This document shows positions 825-64,000 of a DNA stretch of 64,000 bases, in pieces (within the stretch, counting starts at the first letter, position 1; each line of letters opens with the position of its first letter). The DNA is taken from the NCBI GenBank assembly GCA_964016885.1, contig OZ024740.1, positions 25,978,001-26,042,000 of the forward strand. The letters are read 5' to 3'. This stretch comes from Eledone cirrhosa. Lineage: Eukaryota. The notes below the pieces were generated by a model, which made no database searches, was not told the origin of the DNA, and saw nothing but the letters and a program-made list of their open reading frames with translations. Position numbers and translations under genes: made by a program.

Positions 825-888
<64 letters not shown>

Positions 889-893
<5 letters not shown>

Positions 894-997
894 ACCAGTA
901 AGACCCCGACAGCTGAGCTCAAGCCGTTTCGACGGCTAATTCTGGACTGAATTAGCCGTCGAAACGGCTTGAGCTCAGCTGTCGGGGTCTTACTGGT

Positions 998-1002
<5 letters not shown>
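889..1002. mobile_element. Perfect hairpin (54-bp arms, 6-nt loop) in (TA)n; half-hammerhead fold-back family, copy 1
   Basis: 889-942 is the exact reverse complement of 949-1002, with loop TGGACT. Each arm carries GAAAC-GGCTTGAGCTCAGCT-GTC. Confidence 0.85.
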
Positions 1003-1044
<42 letters not shown>

Positions 1045-1172
1045 AAGTTATATTTAAAATTGTTGGGTTACAACTAGTAAATATTTATAACTGATATAAA
1101 AGCACTCGACAAATATTTGGAGTATATTTACAATATTAAATAAATGGAAAACTATATTTATAAAACCATATT

Positions 1173-1238
1173 TATTTCATTATATATATTTCGGGGATAT
1201 CATATTAACAATATGCTATGCCTTCATCAGACAAAATA
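1173..1238 (-). ncRNA. Minimal type I hammerhead ribozyme, inverted pLTR copy
   Basis: Reverse complement of 4496-4561. Confidence 0.75.
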
Positions 1239-1374
1239 CAATATAAACAGTTTTATAGATAAATAGATTCGACATACCGTAATAACACCGACTTCATTTG
1301 AAGAGGTTTACGCTGGCAGTGAAAAATGTTATACAGAGAGAAAGAAAGAGAGAAAAAATGACCTGCCAGTTAGA

Positions 1375-2997
1375 TTGATCGCACCTTCAAAATCGGACCT
1401 GGGCAAATTAAGCAAAAACATTCTTGACAGGGTGATACAGCAAATTAAGAACTTGGATTGTGTATCCAACCTGAGCTTGTGGAAGGGAACTGGAGAGGTT
1501 GTTGAGTGGTTTAGGCAAATTAAATATAACAATAATAATAGGTTTATTCAACTTGATATAGCTAACTATTATTCTTCTATTACCCCTAGTCTACTAAATA
1601 AGGCACTGAATTACGCATTCAAACATACTGACCTAACTAGCAAAGAAATGCATATTATATTATCGGCTAGGAAAACTTTGATAGAATTTAATGACAAATT
1701 ATGGACCAGAGCAGATAGAGATAGCAATTTTGACATAACTATGGGATCTTCCGACTCAGCTCAGGTAACTGACCTTGTGGGCTTATTTTTAATCAATTCG
1801 CTACATAGGAAAATACCTGGTACTACCGGAGGTTTATATAGGGATGACATGCTTTTACTTATTAATAATAATAACCCTGAACTAAATAGAAAATGTAAAC
1901 AAATTACAAATTTTTTTAATTACTTTAACCTTAAAATAGAAATTGAGAACAACCATAGAATAGTCAATTTCCTAGATATAACATTAAATCTCAACACATG
2001 TCTCCACTATCCTTTTCACAAGTTGAATGAAAACTTAAACTATGTCAACTTTAACTCTAACCACCCCAGATCTGTCAAAAACACTATAGTAAACTCAATC
2101 CAAAAACGTATCTCTAGGATCTCGTCGAATAGAAAGATTTTCGACGAAAAGACCCAATACTATAATGAAGCACTAGCTAGGGCAGGATATGCTGATAAGA
2201 TTGTGTACATAGATAATGATAGACAAACTAAACAAAGTAACAACTTTTTTAATTACGGCAACAACATTAACAACATTAATAGAAAGCATTACAATAATTC
2301 CAAAGGACAAAAAAGAAATAGAACTAGGAACATAATTTGGTTTGCCCCCCCTTTCTCACTAAACATTAAAACCCACATCGCTAAATTATTTTTCAAAGCT
2401 CTTGATAATCGCTTCCCTAGAACACATAGGTATCACTCAATTTTCAATAGGCATACAATTAAATTAACCTACTCATCCACCAAAAATTTAGCACAAAATA
2501 TTAATAGAATAAATAATAGGAACTTAAAACCTACTGATAATAGCATAAATAATATACAAGTTAACAAATGTAACTGTAGAGATAGATCTAAATGTCCGTT
2601 AAATAACAACTGCTTAGTTAAAAATATAGTATACAATTGTAATGTTAATACTGACTCTAATTCTTTTAACTACGTCGGTTCCACATCGACGGAATTTAAA
2701 CTTCGCTATAATAACCACAAGAATTCTTTCACAGATCCAAGTAAAAATTCTTCAACGGCACTATCAGGCGTACTCTGGCAACTTAAGCTAGATAACGTTA
2801 GATATTCGACGGCTTGGAATATAGTCTCAAGAGGGATTCCTTTTAATTCATCCTCTGAGACATGTGACCTCTGCGCAGAGGAGATATTCTTTATACTAAA
2901 ATCTAAAAATTCCCTTAACCTACGGACAAATTTATTCAGTTGTTGCAAACATAGATTAAACTCAACGTTTAAATATAAATTTAAATTTAAAATGTAG
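1375..2997 (+). CDS. Penelope-like (Naiad-type) reverse transcriptase with C-terminal GIY-YIG endonuclease, N-terminally truncated
   Basis: RT motifs LDIANYYSSI, TMGSSDSA, YRDD, FLDITL. Linker CNCRDRSKCPLNNNC. GIY-YIG motifs IVY...YVG, RYNNH, CDLCAEE, CCKHR. There is no ATG start, and the homology-like frame runs up to the inverted repeat. Confidence 0.92.
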   Translation: MIAPSKSDLGKLSKNILDRVIQQIKNLDCVSNLSLWKGTGEVVEWFRQIKYNNNNRFIQLDIANYYSSITPSLLNKALNYAFKHTDLTSKEMHIILSARKTLIEFNDKLWTRADRDSNFDITMGSSDSAQVTDLVGLFLINSLHRKIPGTTGGLYRDDMLLLINNNNPELNRKCKQITNFFNYFNLKIEIENNHRIVNFLDITLNLNTCLHYPFHKLNENLNYVNFNSNHPRSVKNTIVNSIQKRISRISSNRKIFDEKTQYYNEALARAGYADKIVYIDNDRQTKQSNNFFNYGNNINNINRKHYNNSKGQKRNRTRNIIWFAPPFSLNIKTHIAKLFFKALDNRFPRTHRYHSIFNRHTIKLTYSSTKNLAQNINRINNRNLKPTDNSINNIQVNKCNCRDRSKCPLNNNCLVKNIVYNCNVNTDSNSFNYVGSTSTEFKLRYNNHKNSFTDPSKNSSTALSGVLWQLKLDNVRYSTAWNIVSRGIPFNSSSETCDLCAEEIFFILKSKNSLNLRTNLFSCCKHRLNSTFKYKFKFKM

Positions 2998-4495
2998 TAT
3001 ATTTAGTTTGATTTATATTTATATGGGAAACTAGCCGATAAATTTTTTGATTCCTAAATCTTTGATTCCCTCTTTTTACTCTTTTTTTATTGTTTATTTT
3101 TATTTTATTTTTATCTAAACATTCCTCATGAAAAATTAAGCTACCCTAAAAGCTGATGCTCCAAATTTTTTGAATTAACCTTACACTAGATAAACTTCTA
3201 TATTAAATATAAGAACATATGTAGACCTAATTGGACATCATAATCTTTTTGAAATGATCTTTGCTAGATGTGATTTGATAGATAATTTTTGGCTTTGTCT
3301 TGTAATGAACTTGGCAATATATTGTCAATTAACTTTGAAGGGTTGTTCTTTGTGGTTTATTTTTATTTTTATTTATTTTTATTTTTATTTTTATTTTTAT
3401 TTTTATTTTTATTTTTATTTTTATTTTTATTTTTTATTATTGTAGTATTCTATAATATTTTTTATTTTTTATTTTTTATTTTTTATTTTATTTTTAATAT
3501 CTTTAATATGTAAATTTTTAATACGTAATATTTTTTAATACGTAGTATTTTTAATATGTAATATTTTTATTATGTAATATTCTTTCGTAATATTTTTTAT
3601 TTTTTTAGTTTTTTTATTTTTTTATTTTTTATTTTTTTTTTTTTTTTTAGTTTTCTATTCTATATTTTTACTTATTATTATTATTGTTATCTTTTTATTT
3701 TTAGTTTTGTTTATAATATATATTTTTATTAGTATATTGAAATCTGCTCTCTATTTCTGCTTGATAGATAATCTTGTAGAGTAATGACAGGAATAATAAT
3801 ACGCTCAAATTTTTATACCACATTGAGAATGTTTTCCGTGAACTTAGAGTTTGCAGAGTGAATCAGTTGGATTCGCATGGATGTTTGTAGCTGTCACATA
3901 AACATATGAATTTTTTAAAACTAAACATAAGATAATTAATTTTCACACATTATGGATACTTGTCTCATTCAAGAATACTGATATTTACAATATAGTGTAA
4001 GTTTTATAAATACTAATACATTAAAACATAGGGTTTTTGCGCCTCGAATATGTCTGGCTATTTTTAAATTTTTTTCTCTCGCTATTTTTTCCTCTCTCTA
4101 TATTTTTTTCTCTATATATATCTCCCTTACATTAATACCTGAGCTAAATAAATAAATAAATAAATAAATGTATCATTGGTACATTTACTCAAAATGACCT
4201 TCCACTACCTAATTTTCTATATATATATGTATCTATCTCTATTTCCTCTCTCTATATATATATATGACTCTTTCTGTTTCTTTACATGAAGTTCTTCGCT
4301 TTATCTATCTTTCCATCTCTCTATTTTGTTCCATGCATTTCTTCTTTTTCTTTTTCTTATTTTTCTTCCTTTTCTTCGTTTTGTCTTTCTTTCTCTCTGT
4401 ATAAAATTTTTTCACTGCCAGCGTAAACCTCTTCAAATGAAGTCGGTGTTATTACGGTATGTCGAATCTATTTATCTATAAAACTGTTTATATTG

Positions 4496-4561
4496 TATTT
4501 TGTCTGATGAAGGCATAGCATATTGTTAATATGATATCCCCGAAATATATATAATGAAATA
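4496..4561 (+). ncRNA. Minimal type I hammerhead ribozyme in the PLE 3' pLTR
   Basis: Stem I TATTTTGT/ATGAAATA (8 bp with 2 GU), CTGATGA at 4504, stem II AGG..CATATT-GTT-AATATG..CCC, GAAA at 4542, palindromic stem III ATATATAT, AUA triplet at 4551-4553. Confidence 0.8.
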
Positions 4562-4599
4562 AATATGGTTTTATAAATATAGTTTTCCATTTATTTAAT

Positions 4600-4667
<68 letters not shown>

Positions 4668-4670
4668 TAT

Positions 4671-5120
4671 ATAAGATCAAAAGATGGTTAAAAGAGTTCC
4701 ATGTATTTTATTATGCGCATTTCAAAAACAAATATCATCATGCAATAACATTTGCGTTTTCGTCAGATAAAATAGGGAGACATGATATGAAGGTTAAAAA
4801 ACACTTGTGAATAGTGCAGTTTTAAATCAACATATGAAAAGTAGTTTTAGATTGATGTGTGATATTTGGAAAAAAAAAAAAATTGAGGGGGGGGGGGATG
4901 AAAAAGAGGAGATGATATTTTCCTAATATCACACATCAATCTAAAACTACTTTTCATATGTTGATTTAAAACTGCACTATTCACAAGTGTTTTTTAACCT
5001 TCATATCATGTCTCCCTATTTTATCTGACGAAAACGCAAATGTTATTGCATGATGATATTTGTTTTTGAAATGCGCATAATAAAATACATGGAGCTCTTT
5101 TAACCATCTTTTGATCTTAT
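4671..5120. mobile_element. Fold-back element with ~200-bp inverted arms, each carrying a hammerhead
   Basis: 4671-4872 is the near-perfect reverse complement of 4919-5120, with a ~46-nt A/G-rich spacer. Left flank is (TA)n. Confidence 0.88.
5017..5087 (+). ncRNA. Minimal type I hammerhead ribozyme (mirror copy at 4704-4774, - strand)
   Basis: Stem I TATTTTAT/ATAAAATA, CTGACGA at 5025, long stem II, GAAA at 5068, palindromic stem III ATGCGCAT, AUA triplet at 5077-5079. Confidence 0.85.
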
Positions 5121-5213
5121 ATATTATTTATACTCCAGTCATACAAACTGTAGAGTGCTACTTATCCGATATCTGCATTGCTTTATTGTACTACAATAAA
5201 ACTCACCACCTAC

Positions 5214-6585: not shown

Positions 6586-7888
6586 TTGTATCACCCAGTC
6601 TGGAACGCCTATCTTGCTCAGAACATTGACAGCATGGAAACTGCTCAGAGACGTGTAACCAGGCGAATACCCTCCATCATCAATCTACCATTATCTGAAC
6701 GCCTTACTTCCCTGGGCATGGATACATTAAAGCTCCGACGTCTTGCAACTAACTTGGAAAACACCCATAACATTATTAACCATCTTGCCAACAACAACTC
6801 TGAGTACCTTTTTGATTTGCATGTGTCTAACACACGTGGATATGCCCACAGAGTCAGAAAACAGCACAGCTCCCATGACTTTCGGAAACATTTGTTCATG
6901 CTCAGAGTTTCTGAAGCATGGAACAAACTACCTGCATCAGTTGTTAGTTGTCAAGACACTGCATCCTTTAAAACCTCCATGGAACAAACTACCTGCATCA
7001 GCTGTTAGTTGTCGAGACACTGCATCATTTAAAACCTCCATGGAACAAACTATCTGCATCAGTTATTAGCTGTCGAGACACTGCATCCTTTAAAACCTCC
7101 ATAGAACAAACTACCTGCATCAGTGGTTAGCTGTCTAGACACTTCATCCTTTAAAACCTCCATAGAACAAACTACCTGCATCAGTTGTTAGTTGTCAAGA
7201 CACTGCATCCTTTAAAACCTCCATGGAACAAACTACCTGCATCAGTTGTTAGTTGTCGAGACACTGCATCATTTAAAACCTCCATGGAACAAACTACCTG
7301 CATCAGTTATTAGCTGTCGAGACACTGCATCCTTTAAAACCTCCATAGAACAAACTACCTGCATCAGTGGTTAGCTGTCGAGACACTGCATCCTTTAAAA
7401 CCTCCATGGAACAAACTACCTGCATCAGTTGTTAGTTGTCAAGACACTGCATCCTTTAAAACCTCCATGGAACAAACTACCTGCATCAGTTGTTAGCTGT
7501 CGAGACACTGCATCCTTTAAAACCTCCATAGAACAAACTACCTGCATCAGTTGTTAGCTGTCGAGACACTTCATCCTTTAAAACCTCCATAGAACAAACT
7601 ACCTGCATCAGTTGTTAGCAGTCGAGACCCTGCATCCTTTAAAACCTCCATAGAACAAACTACCTGCATCAGTTGTTAGCTGTCGAGACACTGCATCCTT
7701 TAAAACCTCCATGTTTCCTGAGATTCGCCAGCACTACACCTAATATTCCCCCTCCATACATACGCACACATGTACATCATGACTCATACACTATTCACTT
7801 TCCTGACATTTGTACATTATTCTATGTACTATACATGCACCTTTGGTGAGTTGTAGAGCACTGAGCACTGTACACAATAATTTTATTA
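6586..7888 (+). mobile_element. CR1/L2-group LINE 3' fragment (ORF2 C-terminus plus 3' UTR) with an internal minisatellite
   Basis: PVWNAY...METAQRRVTR...ERLTSLG...LRRL...TRG...RVSEAWNKLP...SFK matches the CR1-type ORF2 tail. Short TTA tail near 7880. Confidence 0.8.
6917..7713 (+). repeat. 61-bp minisatellite, 13 copies
   Basis: Unit CATGGAACAAACTACCTGCATCAGTTGTTAGTTGTCAAGACACTGCATCCTTTAAAACCTC. 6917+13x61=7710, where CATG recurs. Confidence 0.95.
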
Positions 7889-16087: not shown

Positions 16088-16088
<1 letters not shown>

Positions 16089-16291
16089 CAAAAAGTATTA
16101 CCACGACGGCAGAACTGAAGCCGTTTCGATGGCTATTTCTGGACTAAATTCAGTCCAGAAATAGCCGTCGAAACGGCTTGAGCTCTGCCGTCGGGGTCAT
16201 ACTTTTTTCCTATTTCCCACTCTACTACCCTAAGTATTGAGTACTCTGGTGCGTTATAGTCCATCTGGTTCCTTACCACAATTCCTTTGTT
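16088..16291 (+). mobile_element. Half-hammerhead fold-back family, copy 2 (asymmetric arms)
   Basis: Palindrome centred near 16149. GAAAC-GGC-TTGAGCTCT-GCC-GTC at 16170-16192. The right arm extends ~80 bp further. Flanked by (TA)n. Confidence 0.82.
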
Positions 16292-16469
16292 ATATATATA
16301 TATATATATATATTTATTTATTTATTTATTTAGGTTTATTGGTTCACCATTTGATAGAACTGGTCATTCCGTATGGTCAACCTCGATGTAATATTAAGGA
16401 GAGCACTCAACGTAATGCAACTCACCCGTCTCCGTTTGTGTAGATGGTGGTATGAGTACAGAGTAAATA

Positions 16470-16807
16470 ATTATAAAATAACAGGGGGTTGGACTGGTGT
16501 AATTCCTTAAAAGGTTTATTATATTATGATCATTTCAATGACCGGGTTCAGTATGAATCCGGTGACATCATCAGGTATTCTAAATATAACAAAGGAATAT
16601 AATAGTAAAATCCATGGGGCTGAAAATCAGAGACATGAGTGCCACCGCATATTTAGTAGCGTCTACCCCGGTCGGCCGTCCTCTGTCTATTATTTTCCTT
16701 TGTTATATTTCGAATACCTGATGATGTGATCGGATTCATACTGAACCCGGTCATTGAAATGATCATAGTATAATAAAGGAATTACACCAGTCCAGCCTCC
16801 TGTCATT

Positions 16808-17710: not shown

Positions 17711-18243
17711 CTTGATTCTACAAAGCAGATTTTCTTAATGTCCTTTTACATCGATATCCTTCGCCTGTCGGCTTAGATCCTCTTGTTGTCATTCTACGAG
17801 TGGTCAAGAATTGTACACGTCATCGATATTTCTAGCCACTCATGGTTATCCACTATTTGGTTCTTATCATTCTCCAACCGTCAATCAAATTTGTTTTTTA
17901 GGTCGGAATTACTACTGTAGTAGGTAAGGGGCTGTATGCTTGAACTGCTGGCGGCACTTCGACGTCTTCACTGTCTTTAGGCGCCCTCTTCTACACCGAT
18001 CACGTACACACCCGCAACTGTATTGTATGCGACGATCACCGTAAATAATGCTTGGAGGAAAGTTTAAAACAAATTAAAAAAATATTAGAAAAATATTTAG
18101 CATAACGTTTCAAGAACACAGCCTCAGAATACCTTGAAACTTACATATTTCAAAAGGAAAAAGAAAAAAAAATCTGTACAAAGAACGTTTTTAAATGAAT
18201 GCTTGAAACAGCCTTTCATAAAAAGTTATTTCGAAGGTATTAT

Positions 18244-19652
18244 TGATAAATATACACATATCTACACTCACACACTGTACTCAGGGCAGTGTGTACAGTT
18301 GATATACACATATCTACACTCACACACTGTACTCAGGGAAGTGTGTACAGTTGATATACACATATCTACACTCACACACTGTACTCAGGGAAGTGTGTAC
18401 AGTTGATATACTCATATCTACACTCACACACTGTACTCAGGGCAGTCTGTATAGTTGATATACACATATCTACACTCACACACTCTACTCAGGGAAGTGT
18501 GTACAGTTGATATACACATATCTACACTCACACACTGTACTCAGGGAAGTGTGTACAGTTGATATACTCATATCTACACTCACACACTGTACTCAGGGCA
18601 GTGTGTACAGTTGATATACTCATATCTACACTCACACACTGTACTCAGGGAAGCGTGTATAGTTGATATACTCATATCTACACTCACACACTGTACTCAG
18701 GGCAGTGTGTACAGTTGATATACTCATATCTACACTCACACACTGTACTCAGGGAAGTGTGTACAGTTGATATACTCATATCTACACTCACACACTGTAC
18801 TCAGGGAAGTGTGTACAGTTGATATACTCATATCTACACTCACACACTGTACTCAGGGCAGTGTGTACAGTTGATATACTCATATCTACACTCACACACT
18901 GTACTCAGGGAAGCGTGTATAGTTGATATACACATATCCACGCTCACACACTGTACTCAGGGCAGTGTGTACAGTTGATATACTCATATCTACACTCACA
19001 CACTGTACTCAGGGCAGTGTGTATAGTTGATATACACACATCTACACTCACACACTGTACTCAGGGAAGTGTGTACAGTTGATATACACATATCTACACT
19101 CACACACTGTACTCAGGGCAGTGTGTACAGTTGATATACTCATATCTACACTCACACACTGTACTCAGGGTAGTGTGTACAGTTGATATACACATATCTA
19201 CACTCACACACTGTACTCAGGGTAGTGTGTACAGTTGATATACTCATATCTACACTCACACACTGTACTCAGGGAAGCGTGTATAGTTGATATACACATA
19301 TCTACACTCACACACTGTACTCAGGGTAGTGTGTACAGTTGATATACACATATCTACACTCACACACTGTACTCAGGGTAGTGTGTACAGTTGATATACA
19401 CATATCTACACTCACACACTGTACTCAGGGTAGTGTGTATAGTTGATATACACATATCTACACTAACACACTGTACTCAGGGAAGCGTGTATAGTTGATA
19501 TACACATATCTACACTCACACACTGTACTCAGGGCAGTGTGTATAGTTGATATACACATATCTACACTCACACACTGTACTCAGGGAAGCGTGTATAGTT
19601 GTTATACACATATCTACACTAATACACTGTACTCAGGGAAACGTGTATAGTT
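18244..19652. repeat. 52-bp minisatellite, ~27 copies
   Basis: Unit TACACATATCTACACTCACACACTGTACTCAGGGCAGTGTGTACAGTTGATA (starts at 18253, 18305, ...). Confidence 0.95.
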
Positions 19653-19926
19653 AAGACGCTACACATATATACACAGATGAAAAAAAGAAAGATCTACACA
19701 TAGGCATTGATACCCTCACACAGACATGTTCATACAACTACATCCACCCAGATATGTGCACACACGTGCGCATGCGTATCTTCGTCGACGCATATACATA
19801 CGTGTACCCGCGTATGTTCATATCGAGGGCGCATACTTGATGAATACCCTCCCATCCGTACACACACGCTCAGCTGTATTATATGGGACAACGTTCTTGA
19901 GGCTTGGACCCAACCCGATCATGTGA

Positions 19927-62179: not shown

Positions 62180-62558
<379 letters not shown>

Positions 62559-62599
62559 ATATATATATAACCAATGGTTAATATGGTTCGTTGACTAAT

Positions 62600-63473: not shown

Positions 63474-63860
63474 TCAATCCTGGTAGTATTTATAATATGA
63501 AAATGTAGATTTTAAGCGATGGTTACAGTATAACGATCGCTCTATTCTGTTATTTAATAAAATGTTTTTGGATTTCATAATACAAAATAATTCTACATTA
63601 CATAATCTACAAAATTCCTGTCCATTGAAATATGGGGGGGCAGACGCTATTATATCCCATTTTAGGTGAAATTGTTGGTTATTTTCACGCAGCTGCCAAG
63701 CTTTGTCTGCGAGTGTTGTTACATAACGCTGGTTTTCATGTTTTATCGAATAACGATGTCTATAAAGGCGTGATTTAAAGGAGGTGGCTGTAGATCCCAC
63801 ATAGTACCACTTCTGTCTATCCGATTCGATAGTACATTTGTATAGTACATTTATACATTT
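63474..63860 (-). pseudogene. Second Naiad-type PLE, GIY-YIG domain only, 5'-truncated; 3' UTR runs toward the (TA)n at ~62730
   Basis: KCINVLYKC...YYVGSTATSFKSRLYRH...CRLCNVE...CNHR is homologous to the C-terminus of 1375-2997. Confidence 0.85.
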
Positions 63861-64000
63861 GTAGATTATGTAATGTAGAATTATTTTGTATTATGAAATC
63901 CAAAAACATTTTATTAAATAACAGAATAGAGCGATCGTTATACTGTAACCATCGCTTAAAATCTACATTTTCATATTATAAATACTACCAGGATTGAACG
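63857..64000 (+). repeat. Inverted duplicate of 63471-63613 (5' inversion of the second PLE; runs off the window)
   Basis: TTTGTAGATTATG...GGATTGAACG is the reverse complement of 63471-63613. Confidence 0.9.

Follow-up and report, generated by a model that had tools for sequence, protein, structure and literature searches.

Penelope-like elements (PLEs) are reported to leave 5′-truncated copies that are inverted head to head and carry a tail at one end, a palindrome at the junction and an initiator-like motif in the pseudo-long terminal repeat (pLTR) (PMC8557442, PMC3846280), the motif being TCACT in PMC3846280. The tail has been ascribed to endonuclease resolution and the palindrome to self-priming (PMC8557442, PMC3846280), the latter proposed for PLE junction palindromes in PMC3846280, and how PLEs make inverted repeats is a named open task (PMC8557442). 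In vitro, the protein of the PAc/Poseidon system nicks and extends both target strands, two internal start sites of reverse transcription bound the tail, and ribozyme cleavage is not needed; the part of this 2024 study that was available leaves the origin of the inverted repeats open (PMC11167929). In L1 twin priming, the reciprocal end of the target supplies a second primer and the inversion junction is end-joined, and target-primed reverse transcription is recognised by, among other marks, an additional G that stems from the mRNA cap (PMC11702581). Here we describe a hairpin at positions 889–1002 of a 64,000-nucleotide stretch of Eledone cirrhosa DNA (contig OZ024740.1; hereafter the window). 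It belongs to an abundant family of palindromes that are ultra-short inverted insertions of a Hydra-like Penelope retroelement, probably produced by twin priming, run-off at a likely capped RNA end and end joining.

The inverted copy, the tail, the pLTR ribozyme and the two start sites are already published, and the family is an ordinary one, but an open mechanism can be tested on it with unusual directness: the genome holds thousands of independent junctions, which separate self-priming from the joining of two complementary DNAs (cDNAs). It shares with the published PLE copies the head-to-head inversion, the tail at one end, the junction palindrome and the initiator-like pLTR motif (PMC8557442, PMC3846280). 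Its tail, however, is 80 nt compared with 30–40 nt, and in contrast to the published accounts the data favour an encounter of two cDNAs at the end of the RNA; a twin-priming mechanism opposes the self-priming proposal (PMC3846280). PAc/Poseidon belongs to a different clade and would share the two-strand extension, together with the two internal reverse transcription starts that bound the tail. The inverted junction is not addressed in the available part of that report, and its starts occur without homology, whereas in the present family each end has 3 nt (TAT) in common with the target (PMC11167929). L1 twin priming would have in common with this family the second primer from the reciprocal target end and the end-joined inversion junction, and the extra G from the cap has a counterpart in an extra base found here. 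The two L1 cDNAs cover adjacent parts of the RNA and the event is occasional, whereas here they overlap and begin at fixed sites, and the event is the default outcome (PMC11702581).

The hairpin at 889–1002 and its parent element

The inverted repeat is perfect, with 54-bp arms and a 6-nt loop, TGGACT, the loop that the initial annotation of the window had described. Read as RNA, it folds with a z-score of −22 (against 200 shuffles); if transcribed, the family would be a large source of near-perfect RNA hairpins. Each arm comprises the 3′ strand of stem II, GAAA, stem III with one G-U pair, GUC and the 3′ strand of stem I, which bears out the earlier reading of the arms as 3′ halves of a hammerhead, here of type I and within a Penelope-like element. 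Rfam returned chance microRNA matches only for the hairpin and listed no hammerhead in the window. BLAST found exactly three copies in the window, at 889, 16088 and 62284, which differ in centre and arm length and contain no CTGANGA, all as annotated. A 24-mer of the hairpin, proposed in the annotation as a query, has 52,348 exact matches in the 3.0-Gb genome of the species, with 0 for its reversed control.

The palindromes derive from the pLTR of a Hydra-like Penelope retroelement. Non-palindromic parents had been predicted and are present in the genome: on the upstream side they include a long 3′ region and the 5′ half of a predicted type I hammerhead, and on the other side the 80-nt tail leads into an open reading frame (ORF). 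One of them, L035, is a tandem copy with a 786-codon open frame containing YRDD, VIYQC and YIGLT, and it shows the parental loop to which the end of the left arm at 889 corresponds. The single ORF of the parent combines reverse transcriptase (RT) with a C-terminal GIY-YIG, as in an endonuclease-positive (EN+) PLE, and contains RWR, DKT, a CxCx5C linker, CxxC and CxH motifs but no CCHH; one Cys only was read from the sequence between the GIY and YIG halves. Atlas neighbours of this ORF carry GIY-YIG and RVT_1, and a Pfam scan of two ORFs, that of the parent included, gave 0 families. Partial tandems that form pLTRs were seen in L035 and at 14 tandem junctions, inverted 5′-truncated copies with the tail at one end are present, and the insertion target is (TA)n.

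By its motifs and target the parent would be a Hydra-clade-like EN+ Penelope element. The Hydra clade of C-terminal EN+ PLEs has the same RWR, DKT, CxCx5C linker, CxxC and CxH, the same (TA)n target and a hammerhead in the pLTR; it differs in having units generally of <3 kb, compared with 3,118 nt (L035) and 3,646 nt (L384), or 3.1–3.6 kb, here, where the ribozyme core is a variant and most copies are stubs of ~200 nt (PMC8557442).

Outer ends, stop site and inversion centres

Arm positions are given relative to the first T of TAGCCGTC as zero. The outer end of an arm lies at one of two places, a short end (S) at about +50 or an end at about +130 (L), the latter including the PLE tail, and both fall at TAT adjoining (TA)n. 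Arm lengths thus differ, as annotated, but not arbitrarily. Pattern matching across the genome gave 8,674 S-L, 110 S-S and 241 L-L palindromes (96% S-L) among copies with the one spacing and one tail start that the patterns cover, and five of eight S-S matches inspected were really S-L with a damaged tail. Long inverted copies follow the same rule: of 13 regions 12 were assessable, and all 12 have one S and one L end, with the S arm longer in six, the L arm in four and the two about equal in two. In some of the long copies the S arm is kilobases longer than the L arm. The window copies are S-S (889), S-L (16088) and L-L (62284), so that two of the three are atypical, S-L being the rule in the genome. 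Haplotypes were common to both arms in 36 of 64 cases, compared with a shuffled mean of 11.5, and one template is therefore usual; two independent RNAs per event are ruled out as the rule by the same result. In L050 and L043 the arms differ by alleles common in the family, and two templates may sometimes serve.

Arm stops were collected from the first 15.5 Mb of contig C1, excluding one mis-called row (L019) and one duplicate (L038). The sample holds 101 arms and 67 short insertions, of which 60 have an inverted partner and seven are un-inverted, three of these being one duplicated event. Eighty-two of the 101 arms stop at 0 to −17, with the mode at −9/−10, three stop at −18 to −295 and 16 lie beyond; un-inverted copies, counted genome-wide on the forward strand and as distinct loci only, stop at the same place as inverted ones. 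Position −10 is the A of an initiator-like TYAGTC, which resembles the animal initiator consensus. The base that follows −10 in the cDNA is a non-parental C in 2,795 cases and T in 569. These totals are confounded by partner arms, and junctions to (TA)n were therefore used as the clean test: −10 followed by C occurred in 24 of the first 100 of 897 un-inverted rows (hand tally), and an extra C at any other position in at most three of them. At some centres both arms retain the added base, the sequence between arms that end at −10 being C-G or C-T-G. Among 23 copies whose centre leads into the ORF, 20 were examined; one spans the full length starting at −14, and a tandem junction is present in 14, of which 12 restart at −7 to −13. 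These DNA signatures suggest that the extra C is a copy of the cap and that −10 is the transcription start. A 3′ splice site at the stop was ruled out, since sequence preceding the AG is retained in the arms and they do not share a leader or an exon further upstream.

Centres vary between copies, in agreement with the annotation, and are concentrated within the loop of stem II. There are 71 distinct centres in 99 of the first 100 S-L palindromes, and neither a single fixed centre nor ends of the terminal inverted repeat (TIR) type was seen, the ends being asymmetric. In these 99, the S arm reaches further in 30, the L arm in 46 and the two equally in 23, and the loop is 0–2 nt in 44. The junctions (n = 91) are blunt in 23 cases, overlap by 1 nt in 25 and by 2–4 nt in 12, and carry inserts in 31, some of which are short copies of nearby sequence; L1 inversion junctions show a similar end-joining spectrum (PMC11702581). 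In 14 of the 60 inverted junctions L ends at 0 or downstream of it and S continues past that point; the reverse holds in three. The arms do not overlap in seven of the 60, where L stops at +50 or later and S ends at −4 to −11 in six.

Two kinds of unusual insertion were also noted. The flanks outside the L013 insertion themselves form a long inverted repeat, and L370–L389 include three-piece insertions made of an inverted arm, a fragment running from −10 into the ORF and a terminal arm restarting near −10, which may reflect template jumping or the capture of a third cDNA.

A second Hydra-like family, represented by the element adjacent to the 889 copy (Table 1), served as a control. It has a canonical CUGAUGA hammerhead (4,277 genome matches) and likewise S and L ends, and its short inversions centre at TTCACTG, whose A lies 90 nt upstream of the ribozyme core. 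In its un-inverted junctions an extra C follows this A in 10 of 30 rows and the parental base in 0 of 30. Because the control family centres 90 nt from its ribozyme, the centre tracks the initiator-like site, not stem II, and the earlier proposal that stem II determines the centre is not supported.

Probable twin priming and competing explanations

The parent, the two ends, the one-S-one-L rule, the stop at −9/−10, the extra C and the junction spectrum are observed here, as is the same pattern in the second family. Nicking and extension of both strands and the use of two internal start sites are carried over from the in vitro work on another PLE, and would operate as follows. The protein would cut both strands of the (TA)n target, and both cut ends would prime reverse transcription on one RNA, one at L and the other at S, 80 nt apart. 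Both cDNAs would run off the 5′ end of the RNA, which is likely capped and lies within the loop of stem II, the enzyme making the L cDNA having to displace the S cDNA and therefore failing more often, which would account for L stopping short more often (14 compared with 3). Nonhomologous end joining or repair of the polymerase-theta type by the host could then trim the cDNAs and join them head to head. Priming in the 5′ pLTR copy would yield stubs, and long elements would result if a longer RNA were primed at the sites that lie in a downstream pLTR; the ribozyme half may be a bystander in which the promoter happens to start.

Such a mechanism would explain the long-puzzling inverted ends of Penelope elements. 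It makes sharp predictions, namely that an S end is paired with an L end, that the centre coincides with the start of the RNA and that a base is added at that point, which are applicable in the PAc assay and in any genome with PLEs. We would put at about even the wider proposition that obligate twin priming is the normal mode of transposition of EN+ Penelope elements, with a dimeric protein starting synthesis from both ends of the target on a single RNA, at the pair of sites that bound the tail, both cDNAs extending to the cap and end joining by the host creating the inverted pLTR. If so, the tail, the inversion, the junction palindrome and the need for a tandem source would all follow from a single mechanism, and any inversion centre would mark where transcription of its element starts. 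No statement of obligate S-L twin priming with cap run-off in PLEs was found in the literature searched, subscription papers and supplements being outside the search.

Several points weigh against the twin-priming account. The 101-arm sample comes from one contig stretch in which the family is sparser than the genome mean. L outruns S more often than the reverse (46 against 30), a central deletion after insertion could produce some of the non-overlapping junctions, and the shared arm haplotypes fit equally well the copying of one arm from the other. The cap and the start site are read from DNA signatures, and RT is able to append an untemplated C wherever a template ends. Folding back on a single base pair is possible at 30 of 91 centres. 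Finally, a base private to the 889 copy is mirrored between its arms, the sole such pair among 15 genomic matches, and twin priming accounts for it only if the template was a mutant. This copy is of the rare S-S type; at this one locus, one arm may have been copied from the other, either in the course of insertion or later, or the assembly may be locally wrong.

Twin priming might also operate with a stop that is an RT stall at a folded extension of stem II, or an RNA end made by a nuclease, and the loop of stem II is predicted to contain an inner hairpin at whose foot the stop does lie. We consider this unlikely: the extra C is specific to −10, both families show the C at an initiator-like A, that of the second family being 90 nt from the ribozyme, and arms that pass −17 mostly continue for hundreds of bases.

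A full snap-back hairpin could instead form first at the RNA end and have its centre reshaped later by cruciform opening and deletion. Loss of the centre is known from long palindromes, and this sequence of events would yield variable centres, short loops and identical arms and could account for the 889 copy. The extra base kept on both arms ending at −10 at some centres is difficult to reconcile with later trimming, as are the long copies in which S exceeds L by kilobases and the S ends at −4 to −11 in six of the seven non-overlapping copies, and the explanation appears quite improbable.

The initial annotation favoured snap-back self-priming, in which a single cDNA folds back close to stem II and is extended on itself as far as the second end. 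Shared arm haplotypes, the more frequently longer tailed arm and short antisense inserts at some centres, which resemble local snap-back synthesis, are in keeping with it, and snap-back of cDNA has been reported for R2 insertions (PMC11371274). The fold-back geometry was examined in 91 palindromes with both stem II strands intact, requiring a loop of at least 3 nt and taking the most favourable parent variant: a primer of at least 2 bp is possible at 11 centres only. Folding back on stem II is also unable to yield the non-overlapping arms (7/60) or an S arm that outruns L (30/99), S being far longer than L in 14 of 60 junctions. Loops of 0–2 nt in 44 of 99 palindromes, the same stop in un-inverted copies and a second family not centred in stem II likewise speak against it. 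Snap-back is thus already contradicted as the main route and has very little probability as a general account; what survives of the proposal is the mirrored base of the 889 copy and the 1-bp fold-backs. A miniature inverted-repeat transposable element (MITE) or a fold-back assembly artefact, suggested by short, palindromic and very abundant copies in (TA)n, is already refuted for the family as a whole and is extremely improbable, a MITE needing symmetric fixed TIRs and a fixed body where 96% of ends are S-L, S and L being asymmetric, centres vary (71 distinct in 99) and the sequence is continuous with an RT ORF, and short-read contigs of public runs, which may include the sample of the assembly, showing both ends followed by (AT)n.

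The predicted parent hammerhead and other elements of the window

The annotation had predicted a parent with CTGANGA upstream of the stem; a genome search for CTGANGA...GACGGCTA gave 0 matches, and the core found in the parent is YUGANAA (1,782 genome matches). Among the matches listed, core position 8 is A in all 100 and position 3 is C in about 38 of 100 (hand count). GAAA and an NUH cleavage triplet are present, and the parent is predicted to be a type I hammerhead with a U3-A8 or C3-A8 core. The three-way junction is the minimum free energy (MFE) fold in two of four parents, with z-scores from 0.3 to −1.8. Across 12 copies 95.9% of cells pair, and no covariation was seen, the similarity between copies being too high.

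Hammerheads with U3-A8 have been described before in PLEs (PMC4209133). As here, the Cercyon PLE hammerheads reported there have the U3-A8 core, one or more unpaired bases beside G10.1 and a palindromic loop 3, with opposite-strand pairs noted. Unlike these, about 38 of 100 listed parents here have a C3-A8 mismatch, the stem II loop is ~40 nt and stem III is 5–6 bp (PMC4209133). The 3′ strand of stem II and the 5′ strand of stem III of the parent can instead pair with each other over 6 bp; the resulting hairpin would prevent the ribozyme from folding, and it appears in the MFE fold of two of four parents.

The window also contains other hammerhead-bearing pairs, a further Hydra-like ORF, tandem arrays and non-LTR retrotransposons (Table 1).

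Table 1. Positions of the 889 copy, its relatives and other elements in the window
Feature	Position	Strand	Details
(TA)n target, left flank of 889 copy	830–888		
Left arm of 889 copy	889–948	−	pLTR fragment from S outer end to −10, the likely RNA 5′ end
Right arm of 889 copy	949–1002	+	pLTR fragment, −4 to S end; carries hammerhead 3′ half
Right arm, stem II strand	953–960		
Right arm, GAAA	961–964		
Right arm, stem III	964–982		palindromic loop
Right arm, GUC	981–983		
Right arm, stem I strand	984–988		
(TA)n target, right flank of 889 copy	1003–1039		
Element of second Hydra-like (control) family	1040–4604	+	
Control element, inverted tailed arm	1040–1325		
Control element, RT/GIY-YIG ORF	1267–2997		
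Control element, initiator-like A in pLTR	4414		
Control element, hammerhead core in pLTR	4504		CUGAUGA
Control element, S end	4604		
Third hammerhead-bearing family, head-to-head pair	4672–5210		cores at 4766 (−) and 5025 (+); one short and one tailed end
Tandem array	6795–7826		61-nt period
Repeated CTGANGA motifs of two further families	14078 (+), 15653 (−), 20555 (−), 57013 (+)		possibly pLTR ribozymes
Typical S-L copy	16088–16292	+	inverted S arm 16088–16149 (to about −14), then direct arm with 80-nt tail reaching L end
Fourth family, head-to-head pair of hammerhead cores	16490–16800		CTGATGA at 16574 (−) and 16718 (+)
Tandem array	18094–19745		52-nt period
Several near-intact non-LTR retrotransposon copies of other types	24200–52600		ORFs of at most 1,108 codons
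Diverged L-L copy	62284–62560		arms 81% alike; AT-rich inserted centre
GIY-YIG end of another Hydra-like ORF	63474–63890	−	runs off the window
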